Shown piece after piece: positions 1,477 through 56,801 of a stretch of 64,000 nucleotides of DNA. Source of the DNA: Candidatus Omnitrophota bacterium (GTDB taxonomy: Bacteria > Omnitrophota > Gorgyraeia > Gygaellales > UBA12090); assembly GCA_030674475.1 (NCBI GenBank), contig JAUSCZ010000023.1, forward strand, positions 87,819-151,818. The letters run 5' to 3'. Positions within the stretch are counted from its first letter, which is position 1. Each line of letters starts with the position of its first letter. Below the pieces are notes generated by a model. The model was given only the letters and a program-made list of their open reading frames with translations, was not told the origin of the DNA and did no database searches. The translations under genes and the position numbers were made by a program.

Positions 1477-4400
1477 ATGCTCCTCAAGCTTAAAAAGCTA
1501 ATATCCCTTTTTATCTCTTTTTGCCTCATTCTTGAGCAGACTACTTTTGCTCAAAGTATAAACCTGTCGCATTACTTTGCCAATCCCGGAAAACCTATTA
1601 TTCAAAGCGATAAGTTTAGGCCCTTACACCTAAGGTATCTGGGCTATGATAACCTGAGCCAGGACTTTAAGCTACTCTTAGACAGGGGAGATACCAAGAA
1701 GAAAGACCTGGAGAACAAGGCCTACATAGAGGAAAACACCCAAACCCTGCTCAAATACTTCTTCATCGGATTAGCCTTACCCAATGAGAAGTTCTGGGTC
1801 AACCTAAGGCCGGATGCCCCGGATAACATCATAGATGATGACTTGGCCCAGACAGATGTAGGCAAGATACTTCTTGAAGCAGACCTCCAACTTAAGAAAG
1901 ACACCGCCGGCTGGACCTCGCCCCAGACCCCGGAAGGCAAAGAATATTGGGATAAACTCTACCAGAAGGCTGGAGAGCTATTCGGAACCGAGAACATCAC
2001 TATTCCCACCCTCACCCGTCCCTGGATAGTCCCGGATGAAATAATAATCAGGGAAGCCCCGGATAATGCCTATATCTATAAGGCCACCTTGAAAGTGATG
2101 TTAGAGCAGGATTATCTCCAGGGGAATCCGCGCCTCGGGAGCGCGCAAGCAGTTTATAACTTTTCAGACCCCCGCTTGAAAGAGCTCAACGAATATTCCA
2201 CCCAGCTAATCAAAGAAAAAATAATTCCTAAGTTGACCTGTGAGGTGAATACTTCCAAGAGATACGCTCCCCTTAGACAAGTCTATTACTCTTTAATCTT
2301 AGCCCAGAATTTTAAAAAGAAGTTTAGCCAATCAACCGGAGAAAACCCCTATGTCAAGCTGATTGACTCTCGTAACCTCTCTAACCTCACCTCAAAAGGA
2401 CCCTGGGATAAGCGGACCTACTTTAGGGAATACCAGAAATCATTCCAGCAAGGCGAATACAACCTCAAAGCCACCGCATCCACAGTCTACGGTCAGACTA
2501 TCAGAAGCTATATGAGCGGGGGTGTAATAGTGGATATTACCTCTTCCAGTGTTAATATAACTAAGGTAGAGGCGAATAGAGAGTTGAAGCTAATAAGTAG
2601 TAGCGCGCTACTGGGGCCGATTAAGGTTCCTGCGCCCCCTGGATTTGAGCATAATGAAGCAGGCATTCTGGTCCCAGTCCCTAAGAAAAATAATAACGAT
2701 AACATATCCAATCAAGAACCTAAAGGGCATGAGCCTACAGAAGATAAAACAAAGCCGGAAATCATACTTCCTAACAGGGTAGATATTGATGCTGTCAGTG
2801 GTAAAGACCCGACACAAGAGCAATTCCATGATAAGTTTCTCCTGGAAAGTATGTCTGTTAAGGATATTCCTTTATTCTTCAAGGACTATTTAAAATCCTT
2901 GCGCCGCTACCATCTAAGACAAAAAGACAGGGATTCAGCTTATTCTTTGGAGTTGTCCGGGAAAGGAATCAGCCTGCCTGTTGGGTATGAACTCCTTTAT
3001 AAAATATTCGTTTCTGGCCAAGAAGAGGACATCCGGGAAGAAATGAAGCATCTTAGCCTTGAGGAAAGAAAGCAATTTGATCAGGCAGTGAAAGATTTAG
3101 AGAATCTGTTTATCTTGAAAGGAGTATTCGAGAAGTTTAATACAAATAATAAAGAAAAGATACAGCTTCAGCTTCTAAAAATGGCATATGCCTTTTTTAA
3201 GAAGTTAAAACAGGCAGGATTTAATTATTCTGAAGAGTTTGCTGAAAGTATATTGGAGGGATTAGAAGGAAATATTAAATTATGGGGGGCAATATACGAT
3301 GAACTGCAGATTCATTTACGCGTTGAGACTGAAAAGGCCGGACTCTCCCACCCGGAGGAATTATCGCGTTATTATTATCGGGAAAAATTCAAGCCTTATC
3401 TTGATGTTTCTAACCAGCTCCTCTCTTTGAACGTTTATTGGGATGCCTCCCGTAAAGCAAGGCTGTTAGATAACCTTGAGGAGTTGGTGGTTGTGGAGGC
3501 AATAGAGGAATTTTCCTGGGTTAAGGATATATTCAGTCAGGAGCAAAACCCCGAATTAAAGCTAAGATTTAAATTGATTGAGCCTTTCTTTGGTAAGGTA
3601 TCTTATGAGCCTCTTGAGCATTTAGGCCCGCAAGAAGCTTTTGGTCTGGAACTGGAAAAGGATGTCACGGATGAAGTCCGCTCAGGTAAACTTTTCAACA
3701 CTTCTAAGGGTTGGGAGGCTTTAAGAAAATACTTAAAAGAATACCAGCTGGACTACAATAATACTATGCATATCCATATAGATAGAGGCCGGGGGGATAT
3801 TAATCAGAGAAACCAAGAGGTCTTATATCTTGTAACTAGTTTTCTGGAAGGATACCTATTGTCGCTTAGTACTTCTCGCGCTATAGATTACCTGATGTTA
3901 GAAGCAGATGCCCAATATGCTTTAAGGTATGATTACCTCTCATATTTATATCAAACTATGAAACACGACAGAATGATCCAGTTTAATAATATGGGCAACA
4001 CCACCATAGAATTTCGTTTTGCCATGCCGCCGTTGAGGCATTTAGCCTTAAGTGAAAAAGCCAGGATAATTTATATCAAGGACCTGATTACTCTCTTTGC
4101 CGCGTTAAAAGAGATAATAATGCATCCTGAAGATAGGCTATCCTTAAAATATCTTGGTCTTCCGGTGCAAGCGGCTCAATATAAACAAAAGATTAATTTT
4201 AACCATTTAAATAGGATATTAGAAGTAGTATTCAGGGGGCATCCCCAAGCTAAGGAATCGTTCCGGAGATTGATGCTATTCAGCCAGCGCAAGAGTATTT
4301 GTTCTTATCGCAATAGCAGCAATAAGCAAATAGAGGAAAATGAGGCAAAGGCTTCTTTGCGGAAAGAGATAAGTAATTTTTACTATCTGCAAGGGTTAGG

Positions 4401-5478
4401 TCTGCTCTATGTTATTCATAGTGAATCAAAAGAAGGCATATCCTTGAATGTAGATGAAGACATAAAGGAAAAGATAGGGCAAGCAAAAACTCGTAAAAGA
4501 GAATATCCTCTTTACCATGAGGTCGCCATGTATTTACTTCGGACAGTAGCCGATGATTATGAAAATGAAGAAACAGTAAGAGTTATCTTGGGGGAAAAAA
4601 TGCAAGCTGATGAATATATAGTGGCCTTAGACAATGCTAGTACTTTTGTTGTTCCCGCTTTAGATAAAATTGGGAATAAGAGAGACTATTTTCTAACATA
4701 TGGTCTTCCGGCTTTAGTTCAAAGAGTCCATTATAACTATGAGATGTTTGGGCTCGCCTTAAAAGCCGCTACCGCCTTTAAAGATAGGGAAGAACGAAGC
4801 TATTTTCTGAACTACAGCATCCTGTTCCTGTGGCGGATGAGCGAAGGAGATGTAGCTAAGTTTAAGAAATTACTTGAGCTTGTTCAGCAGGGAGCCGTTG
4901 CCTTTGAGCCTGGGGTAGAACGAAACAATTTCCTGGAACAGGGAGTCAATAGGCTGGCCTACGGAATCAATTATAACTATGAGATATTTGCGGAGAGGTT
5001 GCTGAACATAAAGAATAAAGAATCTTCTTCAGCGCTCACTACAGAATTAAACAGAGGCGGCATTGATCTTACCGCACTGCCTATCACTACCCAACCACCC
5101 CTAAATCAGCCTTTGACGGCTAATATCTCTATAGCCAGCTTGGCTTTAAATCTCAATATTAACTTGGATAATGAGTTCAGGCAGATTCAGGATATGCTCA
5201 AGGCCGGGATTATGCCTTCAAGCGAAAGGATAAGGGAGTATGCTTTAACATCTTCATCTTTGCAAAAAGAGGAAGGCTATGCTCAGGAGATAGGTAGAAT
5301 ACTTGGCTGTATTGCGGAGATATTGAGGTTAGAAGAGGACAGGGGAGTGTCTACTGCTTTAGCCTTAAAGGAGATGCTCATTTTGTTTGAGTCGGATAAG
5401 CCCGCGCGGGATGTGCAGTTTGCCTTAAGCAAAATTACCGTTATGCCCAGGGAGCCGGCGAAGTATAGTTCGCAATAG
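1477..5478 (+). CDS. giant protein (1333 aa), paralog 1 of a three-member novel family. Hydrophobic N-terminal leader ending FAQS, conserved ~330-aa N module, long helical variable middle, conserved ~180-aa C module (GGIDLTALPITTQ ... LKAGIMPS ... LGCIAEILRLEE)
   Basis: Long uninterrupted ORF. N and C modules align residue-by-residue with the ORFs at 5517 and 52639 (and 8280 for the C module). ATG sits directly 3' of TATACT, so possibly leaderless or nearly so. Confidence 0.7.
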   Translation: MLLKLKKLISLFISFCLILEQTTFAQSINLSHYFANPGKPIIQSDKFRPLHLRYLGYDNLSQDFKLLLDRGDTKKKDLENKAYIEENTQTLLKYFFIGLALPNEKFWVNLRPDAPDNIIDDDLAQTDVGKILLEADLQLKKDTAGWTSPQTPEGKEYWDKLYQKAGELFGTENITIPTLTRPWIVPDEIIIREAPDNAYIYKATLKVMLEQDYLQGNPRLGSAQAVYNFSDPRLKELNEYSTQLIKEKIIPKLTCEVNTSKRYAPLRQVYYSLILAQNFKKKFSQSTGENPYVKLIDSRNLSNLTSKGPWDKRTYFREYQKSFQQGEYNLKATASTVYGQTIRSYMSGGVIVDITSSSVNITKVEANRELKLISSSALLGPIKVPAPPGFEHNEAGILVPVPKKNNNDNISNQEPKGHEPTEDKTKPEIILPNRVDIDAVSGKDPTQEQFHDKFLLESMSVKDIPLFFKDYLKSLRRYHLRQKDRDSAYSLELSGKGISLPVGYELLYKIFVSGQEEDIREEMKHLSLEERKQFDQAVKDLENLFILKGVFEKFNTNNKEKIQLQLLKMAYAFFKKLKQAGFNYSEEFAESILEGLEGNIKLWGAIYDELQIHLRVETEKAGLSHPEELSRYYYREKFKPYLDVSNQLLSLNVYWDASRKARLLDNLEELVVVEAIEEFSWVKDIFSQEQNPELKLRFKLIEPFFGKVSYEPLEHLGPQEAFGLELEKDVTDEVRSGKLFNTSKGWEALRKYLKEYQLDYNNTMHIHIDRGRGDINQRNQEVLYLVTSFLEGYLLSLSTSRAIDYLMLEADAQYALRYDYLSYLYQTMKHDRMIQFNNMGNTTIEFRFAMPPLRHLALSEKARIIYIKDLITLFAALKEIIMHPEDRLSLKYLGLPVQAAQYKQKINFNHLNRILEVVFRGHPQAKESFRRLMLFSQRKSICSYRNSSNKQIEENEAKASLRKEISNFYYLQGLGLLYVIHSESKEGISLNVDEDIKEKIGQAKTRKREYPLYHEVAMYLLRTVADDYENEETVRVILGEKMQADEYIVALDNASTFVVPALDKIGNKRDYFLTYGLPALVQRVHYNYEMFGLALKAATAFKDREERSYFLNYSILFLWRMSEGDVAKFKKLLELVQQGAVAFEPGVERNNFLEQGVNRLAYGINYNYEIFAERLLNIKNKESSSALTTELNRGGIDLTALPITTQPPLNQPLTANISIASLALNLNINLDNEFRQIQDMLKAGIMPSSERIREYALTSSSLQKEEGYAQEIGRILGCIAEILRLEEDRGVSTALALKEMLILFESDKPARDVQFALSKITVMPREPAKYSSQ

Positions 5479-5516
5479 AATTTAAAATCACGAATAGATA
5501 TTGTCCTTAACTAACT

Positions 5517-6419
5517 ATGCCCCCTAAGTCTAAAAAGCTAATCTCTCTTATCCTCTGCTTCTTACTTATCTTCCAGCAGACAGGCTTTGCCCAGACCGTC
5601 AGCCTTAACCTGGCTCACTATCTTAGTCAGGCCTCTTCGCCGGTAATCTCTGATACCTTCCGTCCAATCCACCTGCGCTATATCTCTTACGACAATCTAA
5701 GTAATAATTTTAAACTCCTCTTAGATAAGGGGGACTACTTAAAAGCATCGTCAGGCCGCCAGGATACAAAGTCGTCCGAGCAGGAAGATGATCTTAGTCG
5801 TCAGACGCAAGTTTTGCTGCGATATTTCTTTATCGGCTTAGCCCTGCCCAACAGTGCATTTTGGGTAAACCTTAGACCGGATGCTCCGGATAATATCATT
5901 GATGATGACTTGGCCAAGACCGACATCGGTAAGATACTCTTAGAAGCTGACCTCAACCTTAAGAAAGGCATCTCCAGCTTTACCTCACCCCAAACTCCGG
6001 AAGGCAAGGCCTATTGGGATAAACTTTACCAGAAGGCCGAAGAATTATACGGCACCAGCCAGATAACTATCCCCACCCTAACCCGTCCCTGGATAGTCCC
6101 GGATGAAATAATCTTAAGGGAATCTCCAGACACCAGCGCCTACGTCTACAAAGCCACCCTGAAGGTTATGCTGGAAGAAGACTATCTAGGAAAATCCGAA
6201 ACCCTAAACCCTGAATCCGAAACAAATTCCAATTTAAAAATCCAAAACCAAAAACCCTATGAATTCAAAGACCTAAGATTAAGAGAGCTCAATGAATACT
6301 CTACACAGCTGATCAAAGAGTTGATTATCCCCAAACTTACCCAGGAGATCAACTCTTCCAAGAGATACGCCCCCCCTGAGACAAGTCTATTACTCCTTAA
6401 TCTTAGCCCAGCATTTTAA
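5517..6419 (+). CDS. paralog 2 of the giant-protein family, N-terminal piece truncated by a +1 frameshift in a C7 tract
   Basis: Aligns with residues 1-270 of paralog 1 and paralog 3 up to RYAP. Paralog 1 has gctccccttag where this copy has gcccccccctgag (6370-6376). Confidence 0.55.
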   Translation: MPPKSKKLISLILCFLLIFQQTGFAQTVSLNLAHYLSQASSPVISDTFRPIHLRYISYDNLSNNFKLLLDKGDYLKASSGRQDTKSSEQEDDLSRQTQVLLRYFFIGLALPNSAFWVNLRPDAPDNIIDDDLAKTDIGKILLEADLNLKKGISSFTSPQTPEGKAYWDKLYQKAEELYGTSQITIPTLTRPWIVPDEIILRESPDTSAYVYKATLKVMLEEDYLGKSETLNPESETNSNLKIQNQKPYEFKDLRLRELNEYSTQLIKELIIPKLTQEINSSKRYAPPETSLLLLNLSPAF

Positions 6420-6621
6420 AAATAAGTTTAGAAACGAATCCGGCCCCTATTCAAATCTTATAGATTCAAGAGATCTTACTAATCTCACCTCTCAAGAGCC
6501 CTGGGATAAGCTTACTTATTTCAGGGAATATCAAAAATCTTTTCAAGAGGGCGAATATAATCTTAAAGCCAACCAGCCTACAGCCTATGGCCAGACTATC
6601 CGCAGGTATATAAGCGGGGGA

Positions 6622-8064
6622 GTGGAATTGGGAAATAGCGGTTCTTCAGCTCTGATTATTCCAACGAAAAATAACAGAATTATAGATCATCCTGAGATAT
6701 TAAAGGTTAGTAGTGTTATACTGCCAGGCGACCTTAAGGCGTTCGGTAGGTCAACCAGTAGTTCGGCAGTAAAATATGTGCCAGAGCCTGAAGATTTGCG
6801 GATTAGTGATAATCCTGAAATTAGCGGTATCTGGAGTAAAATGGTTGAGGAGAATCTGAAGTTAGGTGAATTTGCCCGGAAATTAGCCGAGTTTTCCCGT
6901 CGTTACGGCGTTATCAATAAATTCCCTCCGGATATATTAAATGAATTGCGCAAGTTTAGCGAGCTTTATAACATTCCGGATAGTAAAAACAAAGCCGATA
7001 AGGACACCATAGCTTATAATTTAGGTTTTATTACTCTTAATAGCGGTATAAAAGAAGAAGATGATTCGCTGTTAGTCGCGCAATTTAAATTCAACCTCTT
7101 GTTTTTAGTGAGCATGGTTAATGCCGGAATAAAACCAGTTGAACTTTTTAATCAATTTAAAGAGATTGATAAGGATAATTTAAATAAAATAGCTACTGGA
7201 GGAAAACTCAAAGATGGTAACGCGTTTTATGATTATACCTGGAAACCGTTTAAGGATATAAGAAGTATCGCTTGGAGTAGTCTTGGCAAAAAGAAAGTTA
7301 ACGATTTCTTTAAAAAATTTGAGTTTTTATTGAACCTTTTTCAGAAAGAACGTATATCATATCATGAGATTGCGCGCCGCCGCCATGCCGGGGAGAAACC
7401 GTATATGGTGATTTTAAAGCAATACCGCGGACAATTTCCCTCGGACATTATTAATTTTCCGCGGGAATATATTGAGCAGCAAGAACCTATTACCAAATAT
7501 GCCCCTGAAGGAGGGAAAATAGGAGATACAGTAAAAAACCCCGGCGGCTTGCTTTTACCGGGTGAATCTGCGGGAAAGGTAAGAAAATTCACGCTTAACG
7601 GCCTGGAGTTTTACGCGAAACGGGTTAATTCTTTATGGACGCGATATCCTGAGGAAGAAATCATGATTTCACTGAAAGCCGCCCAAAGTTTAAAGAAAGT
7701 CAGCCCTTATTTTGGCGTGCAAGAGTTTATCGGTATCGTTTATGACCAGGGAGCCTTTTACTTATTGTCTCGGGCTATTGTCAGTGAGCAGCCTAGACCA
7801 CCGGAAACAATAAGAGATTTGAATCGATTTAAATTAGACGTAGTAGATAGTATGGTTCGCTTAGGGATGCCGAAGCATGATATCCAAAAGGAGGTTGTTA
7901 ATAAATTTGGAGAGATAACTTGGGTATTTTTAGATTTTGAAACGTTTCCTTATCGTCTTGTCAAAGACGCAGCCAAAGCCCTGGAAGCCCTTAAGAGCAG
8001 AAATAACAAAGAAAAGGCAAATGAGAATACCGTATTACTAATGATAGTGATTCAGACGAGTTAA
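6622..8064 (+). CDS. paralog 2 middle piece; reading frame actually continues from the frameshift site near 6377 (YSLILAQHFKNKF...) through to 8064
   Basis: Translating 6377-6621 in this frame restores the conserved N-module sequence (LIDSRDLTNLTSQEPWDKLTYFREYQKSFQEGEYNLK...GQTIRRYISGG) seen in paralogs 1 and 3. Confidence 0.5.
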   Translation: MELGNSGSSALIIPTKNNRIIDHPEILKVSSVILPGDLKAFGRSTSSSAVKYVPEPEDLRISDNPEISGIWSKMVEENLKLGEFARKLAEFSRRYGVINKFPPDILNELRKFSELYNIPDSKNKADKDTIAYNLGFITLNSGIKEEDDSLLVAQFKFNLLFLVSMVNAGIKPVELFNQFKEIDKDNLNKIATGGKLKDGNAFYDYTWKPFKDIRSIAWSSLGKKKVNDFFKKFEFLLNLFQKERISYHEIARRRHAGEKPYMVILKQYRGQFPSDIINFPREYIEQQEPITKYAPEGGKIGDTVKNPGGLLLPGESAGKVRKFTLNGLEFYAKRVNSLWTRYPEEEIMISLKAAQSLKKVSPYFGVQEFIGIVYDQGAFYLLSRAIVSEQPRPPETIRDLNRFKLDVVDSMVRLGMPKHDIQKEVVNKFGEITWVFLDFETFPYRLVKDAAKALEALKSRNNKEKANENTVLLMIVIQTS

Positions 8065-8279
8065 TCTTTAAAGTTAAACCTAAAGCGGAAATATTAAAAA
8101 AGGCAATTGGGTCGCTTCAGCAAAAAGCAAAAAAAATAGAAGAAGAAGGAAAAGCAATAGAAATAGAAAATGAAAAAGTAAATATTTTTGAAAAATATAC
8201 AGCATTCAAGGATGTAATAGATAAAAATATTTTAAACGATCCTGAATTAATAAAGAAAGAGATAAAAAAATTTGGAGAA

Positions 8280-9068
8280 TTGTTAGATAAGTTTGGCGCG
8301 AAGGTGAAAAACATAGTGAAAAATAACAATGAAGAAAAAGTGTCTTTTTCAGGAATAAGTATTTCTATATTTTACGATTTAGTAGATAAATTGAATAAGG
8401 CCAGGCACTACCCGTATTATATTGATTATGGAGCTAAAGTGAATAGTTTTATAAGGGTGATGGATGCGTATATAAAATTATTGTCAGATATTCAAAACCC
8501 GGGAAAAATTGAGGAAGGATGCGCAGAAAGGATGGATGAGTCAAGGAGTGAGCCGGAATTAACCTATTGGTTATTGAAAGAATATAATAAATTGCCTCAA
8601 GAAAAAGAATCTATGAATTCTTCCCCCGTCTTAGCAAGTGAAATCGGTAGAAATATTTTTGCGCCAATTAAGAAAAAAGGCGGTATTGACCTTACCGCCT
8701 TACCCATAACCACCCAATCCCACTTAAATCAGCCTTTGACGGATAATATACCTATAGCAGGCTCGGCCTTAAATCTCAATCGCGCCCTGAGCGATAGTCA
8801 AAGGGTTAATTTAGATAAGGAGCTTCGGGATATTCAGAATATGCTTAAGGCTGGGATTATGCCTTCAGGTGAAAGAATAAAGGAATATGCCTTAGCCTCT
8901 TCGTCTTTGGGGCCGGAAGACCACAACTGGGAAATTGACCGTCTGCTGGGCTGTATTGCTGATGTTTTTAGATTAGAAGAAGAAAAGGCCAAACCCACCC
9001 CGCAAATCTTAAAAGATGTGCTTATTCTGCTGGAATCGGATAACCCCGCCCCGTTACAAATTCTCTGA
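8280..9068 (+). CDS. paralog 2 C-terminal piece carrying the conserved family C module; separated from the middle piece by a second frame change around 8036-8064
   Basis: GGIDLTALPITTQSHLNQPLTDNIPIAG...LKAGIMPSGERIKEYALASSSL...LGCIADVFRLEEE is about 85% DNA-identical to the 3' end of paralog 1. The frame is open back to 8039. Confidence 0.55.
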   Translation: MLDKFGAKVKNIVKNNNEEKVSFSGISISIFYDLVDKLNKARHYPYYIDYGAKVNSFIRVMDAYIKLLSDIQNPGKIEEGCAERMDESRSEPELTYWLLKEYNKLPQEKESMNSSPVLASEIGRNIFAPIKKKGGIDLTALPITTQSHLNQPLTDNIPIAGSALNLNRALSDSQRVNLDKELRDIQNMLKAGIMPSGERIKEYALASSSLGPEDHNWEIDRLLGCIADVFRLEEEKAKPTPQILKDVLILLESDNPAPLQIL

Positions 9069-13149: not shown

Positions 13150-13639
13150 TTTTCTTAGCGCGTCAATTTTTTATCTGATAGCTATAGTCGGCATTATTTT
13201 CGCCATACTCTCGGTTACCTTGAAGAATATGTTTCATAGCGCCCTGGCCTTAATCGTGATGCTTCTGGGTGTAGCGGTGGTCTATATCTATTTAGACGCG
13301 GAGTTTCTGGCCCTGGTCCAGATTTTGATTTATGTGGGGGCGATTATGACCCTGGTTATCTTTGCCATAATGCTTACCGCGGAAATCTATAATAAAAACA
13401 TTAAGCGCCACAACCAGCAGAAGCTGATTTCCCTTATCATTGCCTCCAGTATGGCCGGTTTCCTAATCTTTGTCTTGAGCCGCTTTAAGGCCCAGGCAGG
13501 AGTAAGTTTTTTTGAACCGCTGACTTTAGCCATGATTGGAAAAGAACTATTAACTAAGTATGTGTTGCCTTTTGAGCTGATTTCAATAATCCTGCTGGCG
13601 GCCCTGGTGGGCTCGGCGGCTATAAGCAAGAAAGAATGA
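13139..13639 (+). CDS. nuoJ: NADH-quinone oxidoreductase subunit J
   Basis: 166-aa membrane protein, ND6-like; position in the operon. Confidence 0.8.
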   Translation: MWSNFLSASIFYLIAIVGIIFAILSVTLKNMFHSALALIVMLLGVAVVYIYLDAEFLALVQILIYVGAIMTLVIFAIMLTAEIYNKNIKRHNQQKLISLIIASSMAGFLIFVLSRFKAQAGVSFFEPLTLAMIGKELLTKYVLPFELISIILLAALVGSAAISKKE

Positions 13640-27619: not shown

Positions 27620-30600
27620 ATGAGGCTTAGAATGGTTTCAATTATTAACGAAAAAGCTTTTGAAGAATCCATCGAACAAAGCCTGATTGATCATGGCGGC
27701 TATGTGAAGGGCGATCCGAATAATTTCAGTCGGGATCTGGCGATTGATCAAGCGGTCCTGTTTCAGTTCATCAAGGATACCCAGAAGAATGTTTGGGATA
27801 GCTTGACGGCTATCCATGGCGCGGATGTTGAAAAGAAGTTTTTATATCGTCTCAATCAAGAACTGGACGCGCGTGGAATGCTTGATTGTTTGCGCCGCGG
27901 CGTCACTGATTATGGCAAGAAAATCATGCTCGCCTATTTTAAGCCGGTCAGCAAATTAAACCCGGAAACCCAGAAACTGTTCGATAAAAACATCCTCACC
28001 GTTACCCGGCAGGTTCATTACAGCACCAAAGATGAAAGCTCGATAGACATGCTTTTGTCTATCAACGGCCTTCCTGTGGCTACCATTGAGTTAAAGAACC
28101 CGTTTACCGGTCAGGATGTGGATGATGCCAAGCGGCAGTATAAATATGACCGCGACGAGCGTGAGCTTTTGTTTCAGTTTAAGAAGCGCGCCCTTGTCCA
28201 CTTTGCCGTGGATACGGATGTTATTTACATGACTACGCGCCTTCAGGGGAGCAAGACAAGGTATTTGCCTTTTAATAAAGGCTATAACAAAGGTTCCGGG
28301 AATCCCCCGAATCCAAGCGGCCATAAGACAGCGTATTTATGGGAAGTCGTCTTGGTAAAAGATAGCTGGATGGATATCTTGGGAAGATTTTTGCATTTAG
28401 AAGTTGAAGAAAAGGCTTTTGATGGTAGAAAGTTCAAGATTGAGACACTGATATTCCCGCGCTATCACCAGCTTGATAGCGTCCGGAAGCTTTCCTCCGA
28501 TGCTCTTGCAAATGGAGCAGGAAAGAATTATTTGATTCAACACAGCGCCGGGAGCGGAAAAAGCAATTCTATCGCATGGCTTGCCTATCATTTGGCGGGC
28601 CTGTATGACAAAGGCGATAAGCGGATATTTGACGCAGTGATTGTGATCACCGATCGCATTGTTCTGGATAAGCAGTTACAGGATACGATTTATCAATTTG
28701 AGCACAAGTTAGGGGTGGTTGAGAAGATTGACAAAGATTCTACCCAATTGGCTCAAGCTCTCACCAGCGGAACGAATATTATTATCACCACGCTTCAAAA
28801 ATTTCCCTTTGTTTTGGATAAGGTTGGGGCATTGCCTAGGCGAAATTACGCGGTTATTGTTGATGAGGCGCATAGCTCGCAGGGTGGCGAATCCGCTAAA
28901 AAAATGAAAGACGTTCTTTCGGCCCTTGATAAAACCGAGATCGTATCGGAGAAGGCCGATGAGGACGATGATATTGAAGATGAAATCCGTGAATCCATGC
29001 TTAAACGGGGCCCTCGGCCAAATTTGAGCTTCTTTGGATTTACCGCAACACCCAAAGCAAAAACGCTGGAGTTTTTTGGACAAAAGGGCATAGACGGCAA
29101 ACCACAACCATTTCATCTTTATTCTATGCGGCAGGCGATCGAAGAAAGATTTATTTTTGATGTCCTTGAAAACTACACTAGCTATCAAACATTTTTCCAG
29201 TTGTCCAAGAAGATCGAAGACGACCCGAATATGAATAAGAAAAAGGCCGCCTGCGCGATTGCGCGCTTCTTGACGCTCCATCCGTATAACTTGGCGCAGA
29301 AGACCGAGGTCATGATTGAGCATTTCCGGCAGGTCACTATGAAAAAGATCGGTGGTAAAGCTAAAGCGATGGTAGTTACGGCTTCGCGCGAGCATGTGGT
29401 GCGGTATAAACATGAGTTTGACCGTTATCTAAAAGAAAAAGGGTATAAAGATATAAAGGCTCTCGTTGCTTTTTCCGGAAAAGTTTTATTGGATGGAATT
29501 CCTCCGGAATATACCGAAGAGGGTATTAATACCTATATTGATAAACAAGGGCAAACCAGATATGTTAGGGAAAAGGAGTTACCTGGGAAGTTTGCTACTT
29601 CTGAATATCAGATTTTACTTGTAGCAGAAAAATATCAGACCGGCTACGATGAGCCGCTTTTGCATACCATGTATGTGGATAAGCGGCTTGACGGCGTTAA
29701 AGCGGTGCAGACGATGAGCCGTTTAAACAGGACGTGTCCGGGTAAAGAAGATACATTTATCTTGGACTTCGTTAATAAGCGCGAAGACATATTAGCGGCT
29801 TTCCAGCCATATTATGAGCAGACCCAGTTAAGCGATGTTACGGATCCGAACAAGCTTTACGACCTCAAAACCAAGCTGGATTCGTTTAGGGTGGTATATC
29901 AATCAGACATTGATGCATTCTGTGTCGTATTCTTCAGGAATAAAGAATTACAGACGAAGCGCGAGCATGCTCAATTGAATTCAATAGTAGATGTGGCGGT
30001 TGAGCGGTTTAAGGTAATTGAAAAAGATGAGCACAAAGAAGATTTTGTCAATACCTTGGGCGTATTTGTTCGGCTGTATGCGTTCTTGGCGCAGATTATG
30101 CCCTTTCAGGATATTGAGCTCGAGAAATTCTACGCCTATTCCCGACTATTGTTGAAAAAACTTCCGGGGCCTGACCGCGGCGAAAGGTATCATCTTGGCG
30201 ATGAGGTCGCTCTTGAGTATTACCGCCTGCAAAAAATAGCTGATGGCAAAATTCAATTGCAAAAGGATTCGGGTGCGGCTATCGAGCCGATTTCAGAGGC
30301 CGGAACAAAGAAAGACAAAGACGAATACGCCTTGTTGTCCGAAATAATCAATCTTCTTAATGACAGATTCGGGACTGATTTTACCGAAGCCGACAAGCTT
30401 TTCTTCGATCAGATTGAAGAAGAAATGGTTATGGATGAGAAATTAGGCGTTCAAGCCAAGACCAACACAATGGATAATTTCAAATACGGGTTTGAAGATG
30501 TGTTTATCGCGAAGCTTGTTGACCGGATGGATCAGAATCAGGATATCTTCAACAAAATTATGGATGACAAAGCTTTCGCGGCTGTCGTAAAAGACTATTT

Positions 30601-31150
30601 ATTGAAAAAGGTTTACGATCGCTTAAATAAGGACAGTGGCGATCAGCCAGAACGTCCGTTGTTTTTTAAAGATGTGAGTCCGGATGAAGAGGTTGCGGAG
30701 GACCAGAAGTATGTTGATTTTCTGCCGGTATATTCGCTCCAGGCTGTAGCGACAAGCTTTGGTAAGGAAGAGCACGTGGAAATGCTTGGATGGAAGAAAA
30801 TAAAAAATAAACGGCTGAATAAAGACATGTTTATTGCTCAGGTTGTTGGTAAGTCAATGGAGCCGACAATTTTGGATGGTAGTTTTTGTCTTTTCCGCTT
30901 TGAGCGGGGCGGCTCGCGCAATGGTTTGGTGGTGCTTGTCGAATCTCGGTTGGTTACCGATCCTGAAACCAGCCAGAAATTTACAATCAAGCGCTATAAA
31001 AGTGAAAAAGAAACTTTGCCCGATGGCGGGTGGAGGCACAAGCGCATAATACTCTCACCTGATAACAAAGACTTTAAAGATATCACTCTGGAGAATGTGA
31101 GCGGTGATGATTTTAGAATCGTAGCAGAATTTGTAGAGGCATTATCTTAA
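27620..31150 (+). CDS. hsdR: type I restriction enzyme R subunit with a C-terminal LexA/UmuD-like S24 serine peptidase domain fusion
   Basis: SF2 helicase motifs (GSGKS Walker A, VIVDEAHSSQ DEAH box, GFTATP, QTMSRLNR). The C-terminal ~110 aa carry S24 motifs: VVGKSMEPTILDGSFCLF (Ser nucleophile), FTIKRYK (catalytic Lys), RIILSPDNKDF...GDDFRIVAEFVEAL. Confidence 0.85.
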   Translation: MRLRMVSIINEKAFEESIEQSLIDHGGYVKGDPNNFSRDLAIDQAVLFQFIKDTQKNVWDSLTAIHGADVEKKFLYRLNQELDARGMLDCLRRGVTDYGKKIMLAYFKPVSKLNPETQKLFDKNILTVTRQVHYSTKDESSIDMLLSINGLPVATIELKNPFTGQDVDDAKRQYKYDRDERELLFQFKKRALVHFAVDTDVIYMTTRLQGSKTRYLPFNKGYNKGSGNPPNPSGHKTAYLWEVVLVKDSWMDILGRFLHLEVEEKAFDGRKFKIETLIFPRYHQLDSVRKLSSDALANGAGKNYLIQHSAGSGKSNSIAWLAYHLAGLYDKGDKRIFDAVIVITDRIVLDKQLQDTIYQFEHKLGVVEKIDKDSTQLAQALTSGTNIIITTLQKFPFVLDKVGALPRRNYAVIVDEAHSSQGGESAKKMKDVLSALDKTEIVSEKADEDDDIEDEIRESMLKRGPRPNLSFFGFTATPKAKTLEFFGQKGIDGKPQPFHLYSMRQAIEERFIFDVLENYTSYQTFFQLSKKIEDDPNMNKKKAACAIARFLTLHPYNLAQKTEVMIEHFRQVTMKKIGGKAKAMVVTASREHVVRYKHEFDRYLKEKGYKDIKALVAFSGKVLLDGIPPEYTEEGINTYIDKQGQTRYVREKELPGKFATSEYQILLVAEKYQTGYDEPLLHTMYVDKRLDGVKAVQTMSRLNRTCPGKEDTFILDFVNKREDILAAFQPYYEQTQLSDVTDPNKLYDLKTKLDSFRVVYQSDIDAFCVVFFRNKELQTKREHAQLNSIVDVAVERFKVIEKDEHKEDFVNTLGVFVRLYAFLAQIMPFQDIELEKFYAYSRLLLKKLPGPDRGERYHLGDEVALEYYRLQKIADGKIQLQKDSGAAIEPISEAGTKKDKDEYALLSEIINLLNDRFGTDFTEADKLFFDQIEEEMVMDEKLGVQAKTNTMDNFKYGFEDVFIAKLVDRMDQNQDIFNKIMDDKAFAAVVKDYLLKKVYDRLNKDSGDQPERPLFFKDVSPDEEVAEDQKYVDFLPVYSLQAVATSFGKEEHVEMLGWKKIKNKRLNKDMFIAQVVGKSMEPTILDGSFCLFRFERGGSRNGLVVLVESRLVTDPETSQKFTIKRYKSEKETLPDGGWRHKRIILSPDNKDFKDITLENVSGDDFRIVAEFVEALS

Positions 31151-49035: not shown

Positions 49036-50199
49036 ATGGAACGGATATATTTAGATTACGCGGCTACTACGCCTTGCGACGCGCGGGTAGTGGAGGCAAT
49101 GCAGCCGTATTTTAGCGAGAAGTTCGGCAATCCCTCAAGCATACATTCTTTTGGTCAGGAGGCCAAGAAGGGTTTGGAGGATAGCCGTCAGGTTTTAGCG
49201 GATTTTTTGGGGGCAAAGCCTGAAGAGATTGTTTTTACCTCTGGTGGCACTGAGTCTAATAATTTTGCAATTTTTGGCATTGCCGCGGCGCAAGAGAAAA
49301 AAGGTAATCATATTATTACCAGCGTGATTGAACATCACGCGGTGAGCGAGCCGTGCAAAGTTTTAGAGAAGAAAGGCTATGCTACAACTTATGTGAAAGT
49401 GGATAAAGAGGGCATAATTGATCCGGCCGAGGTTAAAAAAGCGATTACCGATAAAACGGTCTTGATCTCCATAATGCAGGCTAATAATGAAATTGGGACC
49501 ATTCAGCCCATAGCGGAAATCGGTAAAATTGCCAAAGAAAAAGGGATTACCTTTCATACCGACGCGGTGCAAAGCGTAGGCCATATCCCGGTCAATGTCA
49601 ATGAGTTGAGTGTGGATTTATTAAGCCTTTCGGCGCATAAGTTTTACGGGCCCAAAGGGGTCGGGGCGTTGTATATCCGTAAGGGCATCCGGATAAACCG
49701 TCTTTTGCATGGTGGAGACCAGGAAAAAGGCCGCCGGGCCTCAACCTCTAATGTCAGCGGTATTGTGGGCATGGCCAAGGCCATTGAATTATGTAAAGAA
49801 AAGTTAAATGAGGAAGTCAAATTTCAGTCTGATTTACGCGATACCCTGATTAAAGGTTTAACGGCTAAGATTGAGAGAATTTATCTTAATGGCCATTCTA
49901 AATTGAGACTGCCTAACAATGTAAATATATCTTTTGAGTATATTGAAGGCGAGTCAATGCTTTTGAATCTGGATATGTTAGGGATTGCCGCTTCCACCGG
50001 CTCAGCCTGCACCTCCAGTTTTTTAGAGCCTTCCCATGTCCTGCTGGCTATTGGCCGTCCGCATGATCTAGCCCATGGCTCATTAAGGTTTTCTTTAGGC
50101 CGCTGGACTAAAAAAAGCGATATTGATTACCTTATTGAGGTTCTTCCGGGAATAGTGGATAAATTGCGCCAGATGTCGCCTCTATATGAAAAAAAATAA
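49036..50199 (+). CDS. nifS: cysteine desulfurase (NifS/IscS class)
   Basis: PLP-Lys motif SAHKFYGPKG, active-site loop SGSACTS, 387 aa. Confidence 0.85.
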   Translation: MERIYLDYAATTPCDARVVEAMQPYFSEKFGNPSSIHSFGQEAKKGLEDSRQVLADFLGAKPEEIVFTSGGTESNNFAIFGIAAAQEKKGNHIITSVIEHHAVSEPCKVLEKKGYATTYVKVDKEGIIDPAEVKKAITDKTVLISIMQANNEIGTIQPIAEIGKIAKEKGITFHTDAVQSVGHIPVNVNELSVDLLSLSAHKFYGPKGVGALYIRKGIRINRLLHGGDQEKGRRASTSNVSGIVGMAKAIELCKEKLNEEVKFQSDLRDTLIKGLTAKIERIYLNGHSKLRLPNNVNISFEYIEGESMLLNLDMLGIAASTGSACTSSFLEPSHVLLAIGRPHDLAHGSLRFSLGRWTKKSDIDYLIEVLPGIVDKLRQMSPLYEKK

Positions 50200-51217: not shown

Positions 51218-51232
51218 CCCGGACGTGCTACA

Positions 51233-51275
51233 GTAGCGGCGCGATTTATCGCGCTTGGAAGGAGATTTTCGGGTG
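51233..51275 (+). promoter_or_regulatory. conserved leader element (palindrome GGCGCGAT-TT-ATCGCGCT + AAGGAG + N8 + GTG) upstream of bioF; second copy at 62324-62366
   Basis: 43-nt sequence about 88% identical to 62324-62366; the differences inside the palindrome are compensatory. Confidence 0.55.
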
Positions 51276-52638: not shown

Positions 52639-55600
52639 ATGCCTTTACGCCTAACCAAATTCCTATCTCTGTTTCTCTCTTTCTGCCTTATCCTTGAGCA
52701 GAGCGTCTTTGCTCAAAGCATAGACCTTTCCCATTACTTTGCCAACTCTGGCAAACCTATTATCCAGAGCGATAAATTTCGGCCCTTACACCTAAGGTAT
52801 CTAGGCTATGATAACTTGAGTCAGGACTTTAAGCTACTTTTAGATAAGGGAGATACTAAGAAGGAGGACTTAGAGAACAAAGCCTACATAGAAGAAAACA
52901 CCCAAACCCTGCTCAAATACTTCTTCATCGGATTAAGCCTGCCTAATGATAAGTTTTGGGTTAACCTAAGGCCGGATGCCTCGGAGAATATCATAGATGA
53001 CGACTTAGCCAAGACAGATATCGGCAGGATTATGCTGGAAGCTGATGTCCAGCTAAAGAAGGATACTGCAAGCTATACCTCACCCCAGGCCAAAGAAGGC
53101 CGGGAATACTGGGATAAGCTGTATAAGAAAGCAGAAGAGCTATTCGGAACCGAAAACATCACCATCCCCACCCTAACTAGGCCATGGATTGTCCCGGACG
53201 AGATTATTTTAAGAGAATCTCCGGATAACAGCGCCTACATTTACAAAGCTACCCTCAAGGTGATGTTGGAAGAGGACTACCTAAAAACCAGCAACCAGCC
53301 CGTCCTGGCAAAGCGAAGCGGGCCAGGGAAACCAGTAACCAGTAACCAGGTATATTCTTTTAGTGACCCCAGGCTAAAAGAGCTTAATCAATATTCTACC
53401 CAGCTAATCAAGGAAACCATAATCCCCAAGCTCACCCAGGAGATCAACTCATCCAGGAGATACGCTCCCCTAAGACAAGTCTATTACTCTCTCATCTTAG
53501 CCCAGCACTTTAAACGGAAGTTTGCCAAGCAGCCCTCGGGGCAGGCAGGAGAAAATCCCTATGTTAAGCTGATTGACTCCTGTAACCTTACCAACCTAAC
53601 CTCCAAAGAACCCTGGGATAAACTTACCTGCTTCCAAGGCTATCAGAAATCCTTTCAGCAGGGAGAATACAATATTCAAGAGCCGGTGTATACGCCTACG
53701 GGGCAGGCAATAAGAAGCTATTTTAGTGGGGGGCAGCTTCTAACAAATATTCTCAGAGTAACAACGGTAACCCCGGGGTTTGGACCACCTTCTATTTCAG
53801 GCAGCATCCATTTGAAAAAAATTGACTATTCTGTTTCGCCGGTTGCCAAAGGGGACGTAAGCCTTTTGACTGGGTTAAGGTCAAGCTCAGCGATTGAGGA
53901 AAGAAATAATGCGTCTTTATTATCTATGGGAAACTCGACCTTGAAAGGAAGGCCAACGAGAATAATGCTTTCTTTCTTTTCTAACGTTCGTGATAAATCT
54001 AAGCTTGACAATCCATTGGGAGTCGCAGTCTTAGGTGGTACTTTGAAACAGCAACTTAAGGATACTGTCCATATTGTTATGGCACATCATCTGATTGATG
54101 GCGGAGTAGAAGGAATCATCGAAAAAATAAAGATTGAGCATCCGGAAATATTAGGATTATCTCTCGGCTTTGGTTCTTTGCAACAACTGATTACTGTTAT
54201 GCAATATATTCGTTCATTGCCAGCCGCGGAAAGACCCATTGTTGCTTTAGGTAATGTTGTAGCGACTTATAACACAGAATTTTTTCTGAAGCAATACCCG
54301 GAGGTTTTTATTTGTGCAGGGCAAGGTGAAATGGCAATAGTCGATCTCGTCAAATATCGCAGAGGCGAAATAAAGAAAAATGAAATACATGATGTTGTGT
54401 ATATGAATGATGGTCAGATTATTGCAAATCCAAGGAGTCAGTCATTTCTCGTAGATATGGGAACGCCTATGACAGACTTTTTGCCCGATGTAGTAAAATC
54501 CGGGGGTGTTGTTTATATGGAGACCTCGCGCGGCTGTCCTTTTAATTGTACGATATGCGCGCGCAGACCTTTTTTGGGCATAGGTTGGAAAGGCAGGAAT
54601 TTAGATAATATTATTGGCGATATGGAGAAGGCGGCTAACTTGGGCGTCAAATTTATTAACTTTGTTGATGAAGATCTATTTGCTGGCGGTATGAAAAGGG
54701 TGATTCGTTTTGCTCAAATGATTCATGAGGCAAGAAAAGCAGGACGGATTCCTGATGATCTTATTTTTGGTACATCGGTAAGCGTAAGGAATATTTACAG
54801 AATAAATGATTCATTAGAAAATAATCTAAAAAGAAAGCAAGCCTTGGAATTATTGAAAGAGGCCGGCCTTACAGTTCTTTTCATAGGGATTGAATCTGGT
54901 TCGCCAAAGCAACTCGAGCGCTATGGTAAGGCTGCAACCATCAAAGAGAACGAGGAAGCCATTAGGATTATTGAGGATTGTGGAATATGGACTATCCCGG
55001 GTTTTATTATGCTGGATCCGCTTGTGACAATAGAGGAGATCAGGGAGAATATTGATTTTTTAAGACGAACAGGGATGGATGCCCGGATTACGTATCCTTT
55101 AAAGACATATATCCCAATGATAGGAAGCTCTTACACTCAAAAATTAATTGAAGAAGGTTTAGTTTATTCAGTCTCCTATATTCCTGATCGGTTAGCATAC
55201 GAATATTCATTTAGAGAAAAAAGAGTCGCAGATATCTTAAAAAGAATAAAAGATTGGGAAGAAAGCCAAGCAATGTTTTTCTGGGATCTAAAAATTATTT
55301 TTCGTTCCTCGCGTTTTGGTGAATTAAGCCGGGATAAACAAGAATTGGTTAGGACATTAGTTGATAAACAAACCAAGATTTTATTAGATTATTTGGATGA
55401 AATGGTTAATCTAAGCTTGAGCGAAATAGAACAAAAAGAAGTTTTTCAGAGAATATCTTTTAAGTTTGGCGTCCGCTTGATTAACGATATGTTGGAGGCC
55501 TTGCAGTACGTGGAAAATGGTTATTTGCCGCTTGGAGACAAAGAATTCAGAAGTATTATACAGAAAAGTATTATTCGGGAGATTTTGCGGTTATACTTTA

Positions 55601-56247
55601 CACAAAAACAATTTTCGATGGAGGAAGTAAGGCGTATTATCTCTGAGGAATTCCACTATAAATTTAAAGAAGATATTTTAAAGGAAATTTTTGCTTTGTT
55701 TATTAAGGAAGAACGCATCAAACAAATAGACGATAAGACGTTCTGCTTACACGAAAAGTTTTTTGTCTACAGGAATATTCCGTGGCCAGATTTGCCTAGG
55801 CCAGCTAAAGTTATAGTTGGCATTGATGATTTGGCAAGCTCGCCGTTGATTCCTCAGAAAGTTAAATTCCCGGGTGGCATCGACTTACGTTTTCTCCCTA
55901 TAGTTACCCAGGCCATAAGCAACCTAAGTTTGAACGCTTCCCGTATTCCTTTAAGCAAGTTGGATAGCATTAACCTTAATCAGGAATGGCGCCAGATACA
56001 AAAGATGGTTGAAGCCGGCATTACGCCATCAGCGGAGAGGATTAAGGAGTATATCCAGCTATCTTATCTTAATAAAGGTGAACCTAATGATATGCAGAAA
56101 GTCATTTCTTGCATTGCGGATATATTAAGATCTGAAGAAGAGCGCTGCGTTTCTACTGAGCCAACGCTAAAAGATATTCTGGTTGTGCTTGAGTCAGGAC
56201 GGTCGGCTCAGGAACTAAAAGCTGTTTTTACCGGTAGTCAGTCCTAA
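52639..56247 (+). CDS. giant paralog 3 (1203 aa from ATG 52639; ORF track begins at 52588 inside the inserted element). Family N module + B12-binding-like domain + radical-SAM core + family C module
   Basis: N-terminal 330 aa align with paralogs 1 and 2. Middle has a Rossmann-like B12-binding region, then radical SAM CxxxCxxC (CPFNCTIC) and FINFVDEDLF. C-terminus has the family C module (GGIDLRFLPIVTQ ... VEAGITPSAERIKEY ... ISCIADILRSEEER). Confidence 0.7.
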   Translation: MPLRLTKFLSLFLSFCLILEQSVFAQSIDLSHYFANSGKPIIQSDKFRPLHLRYLGYDNLSQDFKLLLDKGDTKKEDLENKAYIEENTQTLLKYFFIGLSLPNDKFWVNLRPDASENIIDDDLAKTDIGRIMLEADVQLKKDTASYTSPQAKEGREYWDKLYKKAEELFGTENITIPTLTRPWIVPDEIILRESPDNSAYIYKATLKVMLEEDYLKTSNQPVLAKRSGPGKPVTSNQVYSFSDPRLKELNQYSTQLIKETIIPKLTQEINSSRRYAPLRQVYYSLILAQHFKRKFAKQPSGQAGENPYVKLIDSCNLTNLTSKEPWDKLTCFQGYQKSFQQGEYNIQEPVYTPTGQAIRSYFSGGQLLTNILRVTTVTPGFGPPSISGSIHLKKIDYSVSPVAKGDVSLLTGLRSSSAIEERNNASLLSMGNSTLKGRPTRIMLSFFSNVRDKSKLDNPLGVAVLGGTLKQQLKDTVHIVMAHHLIDGGVEGIIEKIKIEHPEILGLSLGFGSLQQLITVMQYIRSLPAAERPIVALGNVVATYNTEFFLKQYPEVFICAGQGEMAIVDLVKYRRGEIKKNEIHDVVYMNDGQIIANPRSQSFLVDMGTPMTDFLPDVVKSGGVVYMETSRGCPFNCTICARRPFLGIGWKGRNLDNIIGDMEKAANLGVKFINFVDEDLFAGGMKRVIRFAQMIHEARKAGRIPDDLIFGTSVSVRNIYRINDSLENNLKRKQALELLKEAGLTVLFIGIESGSPKQLERYGKAATIKENEEAIRIIEDCGIWTIPGFIMLDPLVTIEEIRENIDFLRRTGMDARITYPLKTYIPMIGSSYTQKLIEEGLVYSVSYIPDRLAYEYSFREKRVADILKRIKDWEESQAMFFWDLKIIFRSSRFGELSRDKQELVRTLVDKQTKILLDYLDEMVNLSLSEIEQKEVFQRISFKFGVRLINDMLEALQYVENGYLPLGDKEFRSIIQKSIIREILRLYFTQKQFSMEEVRRIISEEFHYKFKEDILKEIFALFIKEERIKQIDDKTFCLHEKFFVYRNIPWPDLPRPAKVIVGIDDLASSPLIPQKVKFPGGIDLRFLPIVTQAISNLSLNASRIPLSKLDSINLNQEWRQIQKMVEAGITPSAERIKEYIQLSYLNKGEPNDMQKVISCIADILRSEEERCVSTEPTLKDILVVLESGRSAQELKAVFTGSQS

Positions 56248-56537: not shown

Positions 56538-56801
56538 TTATCTTCTACGGTAGGCGTCTTCGCGGGTGTCAACGCCGTCAATAATTATATTAAGGCCTTC
56601 AATATAGAAACAAATACGATACTTTCCGACTCTGAATCTATGTGTAGCTGGCGGAAGATTAACCAGGGGTTTGGCAAAATGCAGGGGATTGCGGGAGGAA
56701 ATATATAGGCCGATTTTCTCGATAATTCTGTTTTGCAGTTGGTGGGAGAGCCTCTTGAAGTCTCGTTCTCCGGCAGGGGTAAATTCAAGACTTTCAATCA
56801 T
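56538..56801 (-). CDS. RelE/ParE-family type II toxin
   Basis: 87 aa; LEFTPAGERDFKRL ... HRFRVGKYRICFYI ... VDTREDAY matches the RelE/ParE fold signature. Confidence 0.75.
   Translation of the reverse strand: MIESLEFTPAGERDFKRLSHQLQNRIIEKIGLYISSRNPLHFAKPLVNLPPATHRFRVGKYRICFYIEGLNIIIDGVDTREDAYRRR

Follow-up and report, generated by a model that had tools for sequence, protein, structure and literature searches.

The window analyzed here, a stretch of 64,000 nucleotides (nt) on contig JAUSCZ010000023.1 of a Candidatus Omnitrophota bacterium, encodes three paralogous proteins in which a constant N-terminal module (hereinafter N module) and a constant C-terminal module (C module) bracket middle regions that show no similarity to one another. 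Comparison of positional orthologs shows that middles of this family are replaced wholesale at fixed borders, and the three genes belong to a multi-copy family that is seen only in Omnitrophota records or on unnamed metagenome contigs. We file the family as putatively exported proteins with constant handles and variable cargo, built from two domains that are undescribed in the libraries and the literature searched. The Omnitrophota are widespread, many of their long proteins are unexplained, and we know of no isolate in pure culture. They are ultra-small bacteria that are host-dependent or predatory (PMC10066038).

Three paralogs with shared ends and unrelated middles

The three copies and their parts, with the source of each assignment where one applies, are located in the window as follows.

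1477..5478, + strand: paralog 1, intact gene, 1333 aa (open reading frame (ORF) list; N and C modules by BLASTP and tblastn)
1477..1551, + strand: leader of paralog 1, aa 1-25, made of MLLKLKK, an uncharged core of 12 aa and EQTTFA↓Q; predicted Sec and signal peptidase I signal
1552..2523, + strand: N module of paralog 1, aa 26-349, last residues GQTIRSYMSGG
2524..5055, + strand: variable middle of paralog 1, aa 350-1193, no recognizable domain
5056..5475, + strand: C module of paralog 1, aa 1194-1333, made of GGIDLTALPITTQ, a linker and a small helical bundle (BLASTP)
5517..9068, + strand: paralog 2, in tandem with paralog 1, same architecture, two frameshifts
6371..6377, + strand: first frameshift of paralog 2, a run of seven C within the N module (RYAP↓LRQVYY)
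8025..8062, + strand: interval of the second frameshift of paralog 2, no homopolymer
8679..9065, + strand: C module of paralog 2 (motif position)
52639..56247, + strand: paralog 3, intact gene, 1202 aa (ORF list)
52714..53733, + strand: N module of paralog 3, last residues SGG (BLASTP and motif position)
54013..55062, + strand: cargo of paralog 3, with a B12-binding region at 54013-54348, a radical S-adenosylmethionine (SAM) region at 54517-55062 and the CxxxCxxC motif at 54535-54558
55873..56244, + strand: C module of paralog 3 (BLASTP and motif position)

Paralogs 1 and 2 are separated by 38 nt; for paralog 3, the ATG at 52639 matches the family leader and the upstream ATG at 52588 does not. 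In BLASTP comparisons, which used the reconstructed product of paralog 2, the N modules of paralogs 1 and 2 are 63% identical (411 aa, E 1e-155), those of paralogs 1 and 3, 71% (404 aa, E 0), and those of paralogs 2 and 3, 62% (391 aa, E 4e-148). The corresponding values for the C modules are 58% (145 aa, E 3e-40), 45% (125 aa, E 4e-23) and 43% (129 aa, E 4e-21). The middles yield no alignment between any pair, and tblastn detects exactly three copies of the family within the window.

The initial annotation of this DNA had described N and C modules common to three products, and middles unrelated between the copies; this description stands, with 62-71% and 43-58% amino acid identity of the two modules, nothing that aligns in between, and E-values down to 0 that do not allow the similarity to be dismissed as noise. 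Several of its details require revision. The three ORFs of which it spoke are intact in the case of paralogs 1 and 3, whereas paralog 2 is split into three ORFs; the C module is not about 180 aa but about 125-145 aa long, with a sharp start at GGID(L/F); and 'giant' is hardly the word for window products of 1.2-1.3 thousand amino acids (kaa), though the family reaches at least 6.4 kaa. From a DNA identity of about 85%, the C modules of the first two paralogs had been said to have undergone recent gene conversion, but blastn gives an identity of 72% over 244 nt. With N modules at 71-76%, recent gene conversion between the window paralogs was rejected altogether, given DNA identities of only 71-76% and longest exact matches of 32 and 42 nt. 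These two matches lie inside N modules with an identity otherwise of 72-76%, the 42-nt one between 1732-1773 in paralog 1 and 52894-52935 in paralog 3, and the 32-nt one between 2014-2045 in paralog 1 and 6081-6112 in paralog 2. They are longer than expected under uniform divergence, which as a sign of gene conversion is suggestive at most, and long enough for seeding homologous recombination.

The two modules and the distribution of the family

The common layout of the family is a signal peptide of about 25 aa, an N module of about 325 aa, a variable middle that measures from 0.1 to more than 6 kaa and a C module of about 125 aa. Conservation drops abruptly after the motif GQxIRSYxSGG and resumes just as abruptly at GGID(F/L)RxLPIxTQ. 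Across 102 full-length members, the identity of the N modules is 52-100% (median 65%), and the module is about as conserved as housekeeping enzymes; that of the C modules is 17-100% (median 42%), and in 4941 of the 5151 pairs of middles there is no BLAST similarity.

Neither module matches anything in Pfam, NCBIfam, PADLOC or PHROGs, profiles of both compared with all PDB sequences yield nothing significant, the N module has no fold match in the PDB, and a full-text literature search found no description of either, so that the earlier impression of modules unlike known domains is borne out by all of these searches. A natural minimal member, P0054, consists of the N module, a linker and the C module; in its AlphaFold2 model, the predicted local distance difference test score (pLDDT) exceeds 90 over most of both domains, and the linker is disordered. 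The C module of this model is made of five helices (pLDDT about 90) that form a small bundle resembling tetratricopeptide or pentatricopeptide repeats. The N module of paralog 1, modeled alone (pLDDT 82, predicted template modeling score 0.80), is a compact alpha/beta domain, in which some six long helices pack onto three long beta-hairpins.

A word-index search with the N module returned 369 matches; the named ones come almost all from Omnitrophota, the others are unnamed metagenome proteins, and in no case does a Pfam domain cover the module. A profile built from eight C modules and searched against 1.84 billion representatives retrieved 1126 representative proteins, 236 of them below 1e-30; among the matches listed, the C module is at the extreme C-terminus, in proteins of up to 6439 aa. 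Every full-length C-module match also begins with an N module, as detected with a local N-module hidden Markov model, and the matches that lack it begin mid-sequence and hence are fragments. A C-module-bearing fragment, P0186, carries PF14890 (Intein_splicing). The metagenome-wide searches that the initial annotation had proposed thus reveal the same two modules bracketing many different middles.

Among GTDB species, each represented by one genome, there are 420 family loci, and the best 79 of these all come from Omnitrophota metagenome-assembled genomes (MAGs) or from records with doubtful labels. The labels 'uncultured Planctomycetales', 'Margulisiibacteriota', 'Desulfocucumaceae' and 'Colwellbacteria' occur on some family records (L013, L020, L028, L032, L033, L037, L048, L059, L064, L065 and L075; P0165 and P0240), which probably are mislabeled or misbinned Omnitrophota contigs. 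At least 9 copies are present in one MAG, and tandem pairs as in the window are found elsewhere, too; in the 79 loci, 48 ORFs of 612-3375 aa have an N module at the start and a C module at the end. A viral or mobile-element origin was considered and rejected, given that the N module is found on 2 of the 2.9 million IMG/VR contigs and that PHROGs and PADLOC have nothing for either module.

Exchange of the middles at fixed borders

Evidence for exchange comes from a fixed site occupied by one family member, dnaN-gyrB-gyrA-glmS-rsmI-(family gene)-pyrR-pyrB-pyrC, with glmS as a neighbor in 27 of the 79 loci. In three species with GlmS proteins that are 93-94% identical, the middles of the family gene at this site are 2051, 1092 and 945 aa long and lack any mutual similarity. 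In blastn comparisons of the syntenic loci, the flanks and the N module are collinear at 81-84% DNA identity, the similarity ceases 10-46 nt past the SGG border, there is no signal across the middles (6.2 kb versus 3.3 kb), the similarity returns 0-72 nt from GGID, and collinearity then continues through pyrR-pyrC. The breakpoints thus fall on the borders of the modules, and the notion of a modular family with exchanged middles, already put forward in the initial annotation, gains direct backing from orthologs of close species that keep N module, C module and flanks around unrelated middles.

Two further observations point to swapped middles. Within one member, the N module and the C module often have their nearest relatives in different proteins: in paralog 1, the N module most resembles that of paralog 3 (78%) and the C module that of L012 (85%). 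Within the window, the N-module tree is (p1,p3),p2 and the C-module tree is (p1,p2),p3. Furthermore, the G+C content at third codon positions (GC3) over 48 genes is 0.478 in the N module, 0.365 in the middle and 0.476 in the C module, compared with 0.51 in housekeeping neighbors; the middle is lower by about 0.11 and is below the N module in 47 of the 48 genes (p=1e-14). The three window genes follow the same pattern; in paralog 1, the GC content is 0.394 in the middle, 0.454 in the N module and 0.453 in the C module. The low GC3 of the middles could reflect either foreign origin or relaxed codon selection.

A rival possibility is that the shared ends are an artefact, that is, assembly chimeras formed at repeats or chance similarity. 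Many database matches are indeed fragments on short contigs, as would be expected if a repeated N module breaks assemblies. However, apart from the E-values, the complete architecture from N to C module is encoded without interruption by individual ORFs, located on contigs of 100-580 kb that stem from many separate studies, and the synteny is collinear on both sides of the gene, so that this explanation can be considered refuted, with a practically negligible probability.

Another length difference at this site concerns gyrA. The GyrA ORFs L041:397-4182 and L011:1504-5274 are longer by about 440 aa than those of L015, L050 and L060 (1257-1262 versus 810-816 aa); in L041 the insert starts at ...AAMRY↓CVSGDT and ends at ...FISHN↓TEARL, and it shows up as an interruption where L011 and L015 are otherwise collinear by blastn. 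The insert looks like an intein with a homing-endonuclease-like insertion.

Probable decay of paralog 2 and of other members

On three-frame translation, paralog 2 reads as ORFs 5517-6419, 6622-8064 and 8280-9068. The first break is a +1 shift at the C7 run; at the second, there is a frame 0 stop just 5' of the interval 8025-8062 and a frame 1 stop at its end. All three segments remain coding. An intact relative of 1453 aa (locus L002) is 62% identical to paralog 2, from residue 7 to residue 1031, across both shift sites, and the last ORF, translated from an internal methionine, includes the entire 250-aa public protein P0124 from a Candidatus Omnitrophota MAG. With two shifts in one gene and no other obviously split genes among the roughly 50 remaining ORFs of the window, the shifts look like real decay, and to judge by its reading frames paralog 2 is a probable pseudogene rather than a product of assembly noise. 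Phase variation at the poly-C tract was also considered and rejected: the site has C2-C6 in intact relatives and C2-C4 in most members, so there is no conserved slippery run.

Paralog 2 does not stand alone in this respect. About six members among the locus ORFs, or about 10% of the members, are broken by in-frame TAA or TAG stops or by frameshifts, at the following places in other genomes.

L055:11759-11761
L070:1666-1668
L071:2011-2013
L032:6252-6254 and 7125-7127
L034, near 13588-13603

The TAA and TAG stops of L055, L070, L071 and L032 occur at differing positions in genes with unrelated middles; hence they are independent nonsense mutations or pseudogenizations, and programmed read-through or a conserved split gene was rejected for the same reason.

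The cargo

Many of the middles are orphans without a recognized domain. The Pfam census of the others includes Metallophos, FHA, four kinds of SAM methyltransferase, HATPase_c, Fic, GNAT, HD, ABC1 kinase, ROK, dehydroquinate synthase, NAD-dependent epimerases, HAD, M48 peptidase, GT1/GT9, HEAT, phosphoglycerate kinase, enolase and radical SAM, and nearly all recognized cargo consists of domains that need cytoplasmic cosubstrates. There are no adhesin, Ig-like or glycoside hydrolase domains among the matches returned.

In the window, the middle of paralog 3 matches Pfam Radical_SAM (PF04055) with 58.6 bits (cut-off 29.5) and the B12-binding family PF02310 with 28.2 bits, just under the cut-off of 32.1; 22 NCBIfam families of B12-dependent radical SAM proteins match, none at its equivalog cut-off, and the CxxxCxxC motif is intact (CPFNCTIC at aa 633). 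The identification of a B12-dependent radical SAM enzyme, made in the initial annotation, is thus confirmed. The other two cargos fared differently. For the middle of paralog 1 there is no match in Pfam, NCBIfam, PADLOC, PHROGs or PDB, and the long helical repeats that had been ascribed to it are not found by self-BLAST; the region is merely rich in helix-favoring residues. The cargo of paralog 2, in which a kinase-like segment had been suspected, has no match in Pfam, NCBIfam or among PDB sequences, even with a four-sequence profile. Its motifs GKVRKF..YAKR, PEEE, DI[EQ] and FLDFET are kept in four relatives, and the resemblance to kinases is one of motifs, for which there is no statistical support.

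Proposed export and docking, and the paradox of cytoplasmic enzymes

Across 99 members, the leader is typically 25 aa long; its n-region carries between +2 and +4 net charges, the uncharged core measures 12 aa in 81 of the 99, and the end is of the form (E/Q)Q(S/T)GFA↓Q, in which G is at position -3 in 75 members, A at -1 in 92 and Q at +1 in all. On inspection, these sequences have what is expected of a signal for Sec and signal peptidase I, namely a positively charged n-region, a hydrophobic core 7-15 residues in length, and small amino acids at both -3 and -1. The geometry predicts a cleavable Sec signal cut at GFA↓Q, and we infer that the proteins are exported by Sec. The Tat motif S/T-R-R-x-F-L-K is not what is seen in these leaders, which mostly have KK, RK or KR and only sporadically RR. 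A lipoprotein signal was rejected as well: the conserved Cys lies in the middle of the h-region and there is no lipobox. Of 46 full-length members, 23 have no hydrophobic span other than the leader, in 8 no span reaches the threshold used, and 15 have further spans; in paralogs 1 to 3, the leader is the sole such span.

Our preferred reading of this combination of features is that the family may be an exported carrier for exchangeable cargo, the constant ends of which would dock to shared machinery. Under this hypothesis, the signal peptide of about 25 aa would be cleaved at GFA↓Q upon export, and the constant ends would serve as handles that dock every paralog to one conserved machinery or assembly of its own cell, the candidates being an envelope or surface structure and a type II or Tad-like secretion route. 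If the handles must fit one conserved partner, this could account for the conservation of the N module at the level of housekeeping proteins (52-100%) notwithstanding the turnover of the cargo. The conserved ends might double as homology arms for cargo swaps by recombination, and the cargo would do its work on the surface of the cell or inside a host or prey. Surface variation or effector delivery may be involved. In the window, paralog 1 would carry an orphan cargo, paralog 2 an orphan cargo in the course of decay, and paralog 3 a B12-dependent radical SAM cargo. We embrace the carrier hypothesis tentatively, as a working proposal that falls somewhat short of being probable.

Indeed, several considerations speak against it. 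Sec export is a prediction from inspection of the leaders, and the docking role of the modules is proposed from their conservation. At least one complete member (L047) has no C module. Clustering of all ORFs that flank the 79 loci, in a search for conserved partner genes, identified as recurrent only dnaN, gyrB, gyrA, glmS, rsmI and pyrR/B/C; all of these are housekeeping genes, the genomic context thus offers no tie to a secretion system, and no conserved neighbor in these loci suggests partner machinery. Most importantly, 4Fe-4S and B12-dependent radical SAM enzymes, phosphoglycerate kinase, enolase and the enzymes that depend on SAM, ATP or acetyl-CoA cannot function in the periplasm or outside the cell after Sec transport, and some such cargo cannot even be matured there. 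Cofactor-dependent cargo behind a signal thus favors either delivery into the cytoplasm of another cell or proteins that stay on the cytoplasmic side.

The second horn of this dilemma would have the leader be an uncleaved membrane tether or non-functional, with the N and C modules as a scaffold for enzymes that face the cytoplasm, either on the inner membrane or within some assembly inside the cell. Such an arrangement is compatible with the fact that every recognizable cargo domain uses cytoplasmic cofactors and that the cysteine motif of the radical SAM cargo of paralog 3 is intact; inner-membrane-anchored cytoplasmic enzymes with a similar domain content have been considered also in a 2026 preprint on long proteins of Omnitrophota (10.64898/2026.06.07.730766). 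The leader itself argues otherwise: the uncharged core of 12 aa in 81 of the 99 members is too short for a membrane span, it is followed by the near-invariant small-x-small site G-F-A↓Q, and by the positive-inside rule an n-region charge of +2 to +4 puts the bulk of the protein outside. We therefore regard intracellular retention as rather unlikely.

The first horn is a bolder version of the carrier hypothesis, in which the N and C modules would be the recognition and translocation handles of an Omnitrophota-specific route that delivers cytoplasm-type enzymes (radical SAM, kinases, Fic, methyltransferases and glycolytic enzymes) into the cytoplasm of host or prey cells. Sec export would be followed by hand-over through the constant domains and by entry into the host or prey cytoplasm, and the cargo might be cut free at the invariant double-glycine borders (SGG before the cargo and GGID after it). 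C39 double-glycine peptidase domains are reported in the literature on the giant proteins of Omnitrophota; there is none in the family members scanned, and double-glycine processing is only a lead. We deem this route to the host unlikely on the present evidence.

Genomic neighborhood and the question of a toxin

A further candidate is a polymorphic toxin or contact-dependent inhibition (CDI) family deployed against competitors, with the N module as a trafficking domain, and toxin delivery was indeed one of the analogies drawn in the initial annotation. A multi-copy family with ends that stay constant, cargo that turns over rapidly and many pseudogenes would fit such a role, and Fic, kinase and acetyltransferase domains are generally known to act as toxins elsewhere. 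Nevertheless, the variable part is internal rather than C-terminal, there is no small immunity-like gene 3' of the family genes (in the window, paralog 1 is followed by paralog 2, paralog 2 by nuoA and paralog 3 by a RelE-like/Fic region, whereas the syntenic copies precede pyrR), a scan of 56 members detected no toxin domain of the nuclease, deaminase or pore-forming kind, and many cargos are metabolic enzymes of the housekeeping type. Fic, found once, is the only cargo domain with a toxin precedent. The analogy, in its polymorphic-toxin sense, is not supported, and we view a toxin family as highly improbable.

The surroundings of the three window genes are mixed. Immediately upstream of paralog 1 are two overlapping genes for response-regulator receiver proteins (34-711 and 680-1321), and 266 nt past paralog 2 begins the nuoA-B-C-D-H operon. 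Directly upstream of paralog 3, on the same strand, positions 49036-52436 encode a NifS-like cysteine desulfurase, BioB (a radical SAM enzyme) and BioF, a juxtaposition that may be a coincidence. Directly downstream of paralog 3 are a small RelE/ParE-like ORF (56538-56801, - strand; no Pfam match at 1e-5), an ORF at 56810-57262 (- strand) and a protein with HTH_3 and Fic/DOC domains (57365-58291). The window also contains a large ORF of 1176 aa outside the family (27620-31150).

Implications and relation to known systems

A pair of constant domains with sharp bounds is the hallmark of well over a thousand proteins, and the exchange of cargo between close relatives takes place at the borders of these domains. 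Profiles of both modules would let the cargo repertoire be cataloged genome by genome, and the modules are obvious targets for work on localization, interaction and export. Should delivery into hosts prove true, it would resolve the paradox of cofactor-dependent enzymes behind signal peptides in Omnitrophota and would bring to light a new class of effector carriers built around a domain without a fold match in the PDB. If the cargo is not delivered to hosts, the family still is a clear natural example of cassette exchange within one ORF.

Among proteins of the same phylum, the obvious comparison is with the Archaeovorins, which span 10-147 kaa, are usually rich in transmembrane helices, contain SecA-like helicase domains and adjoin type II or Tad-like loci (10.1101/2023.11.21.568195; 10.64898/2026.06.07.730766). 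The present family shares with them the Omnitrophota provenance, the N-terminal signal peptides and the poorly conserved bodies (West-Roberts et al. 2023, 10.1101/2023.11.21.568195; 10.64898/2026.06.07.730766), as well as methyltransferase, HATPase_c, GNAT, HAD, HD, radical SAM and HEAT domains and glycolytic enzymes behind an export signal; the same localization paradox is debated in these papers on long and giant Omnitrophota proteins (10.1101/2023.11.21.568195; 10.64898/2026.06.07.730766). It differs in its size of 0.6 to at least 6.4 kaa, in that about two thirds of the members lack a transmembrane segment beyond the leader, and in its housekeeping neighbors, and the conserved pair of N and C modules is not mentioned in either paper (10.1101/2023.11.21.568195; 10.64898/2026.06.07.730766). 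The window copies, at 1.2-1.3 kaa, with the leader as sole hydrophobic span and without a match to a SecA domain, have neither the length (over 10-30 kaa) nor the many transmembrane helices nor the SecA DEAD-like domain of the Archaeovorin type.

By architecture, the closest analogue is the multifunctional autoprocessing repeats-in-toxin (MARTX) proteins, in which conserved N- and C-terminal regions surround a central array of effectors that is reshuffled between strains by recombination. MARTX proteins have ends of glycine-rich A/B/C repeats with RTX nonapeptides, are secreted by the type I route without a Sec signal and free their effectors by means of an internal cysteine protease. The likeness is that of a central variable region between constant ends. 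In contrast to MARTX, the family has a Sec-type leader and a compact alpha/beta N module, no HemolysinCabind or other RTX Pfam match in 58 members, and no Peptidase_C80 match in the members scanned.

A Sec signal, a variable passenger and a constant C module in many paralogs are also found in the cargo of type IX secretion systems with their C-terminal domains (CTDs), autotransporters, LPXTG and PEP-CTERM proteins and dockerin-bearing enzymes, but members of the present family also begin with a constant domain, larger than the C-terminal one. The C module, a soluble bundle predicted to be all-helical (pLDDT about 90), forms no beta-barrel of the type V autotransporter kind and no Ig-like beta-sandwich as in type IX cargo, with no match to a Pfam CTD; unlike in substrates of sortase, exosortase or rhombosortase, where a motif precedes a transmembrane helix and a basic tail, there is no C-terminal hydrophobic span in paralogs 1 to 3 or in the members scanned; and, as distinct from cellulosomal dockerin enzymes, there is no Dockerin_1 match, the C module being a five-helix bundle. 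Polymorphic toxins, CDI and Rhs proteins differ in that here the constant module is at the extreme C-terminus, among the matches listed, and that no cognate immunity gene lies immediately downstream in the window or at the syntenic locus.

Finally, in the MIX, FIX, RIX and WHIX classes of type VI secretion system effectors, one constant delivery domain is combined with unrelated active domains (PMC10435454, PMC12135965). These effectors have neither a Sec signal nor a constant C-terminal domain, and the toxin domain is C-terminal and accompanied by an immunity gene. Judged by logic, the closest analogues of the family are the MIX, RIX and WHIX classes together with cargo that is tagged by a signal peptide and a C-terminal domain.

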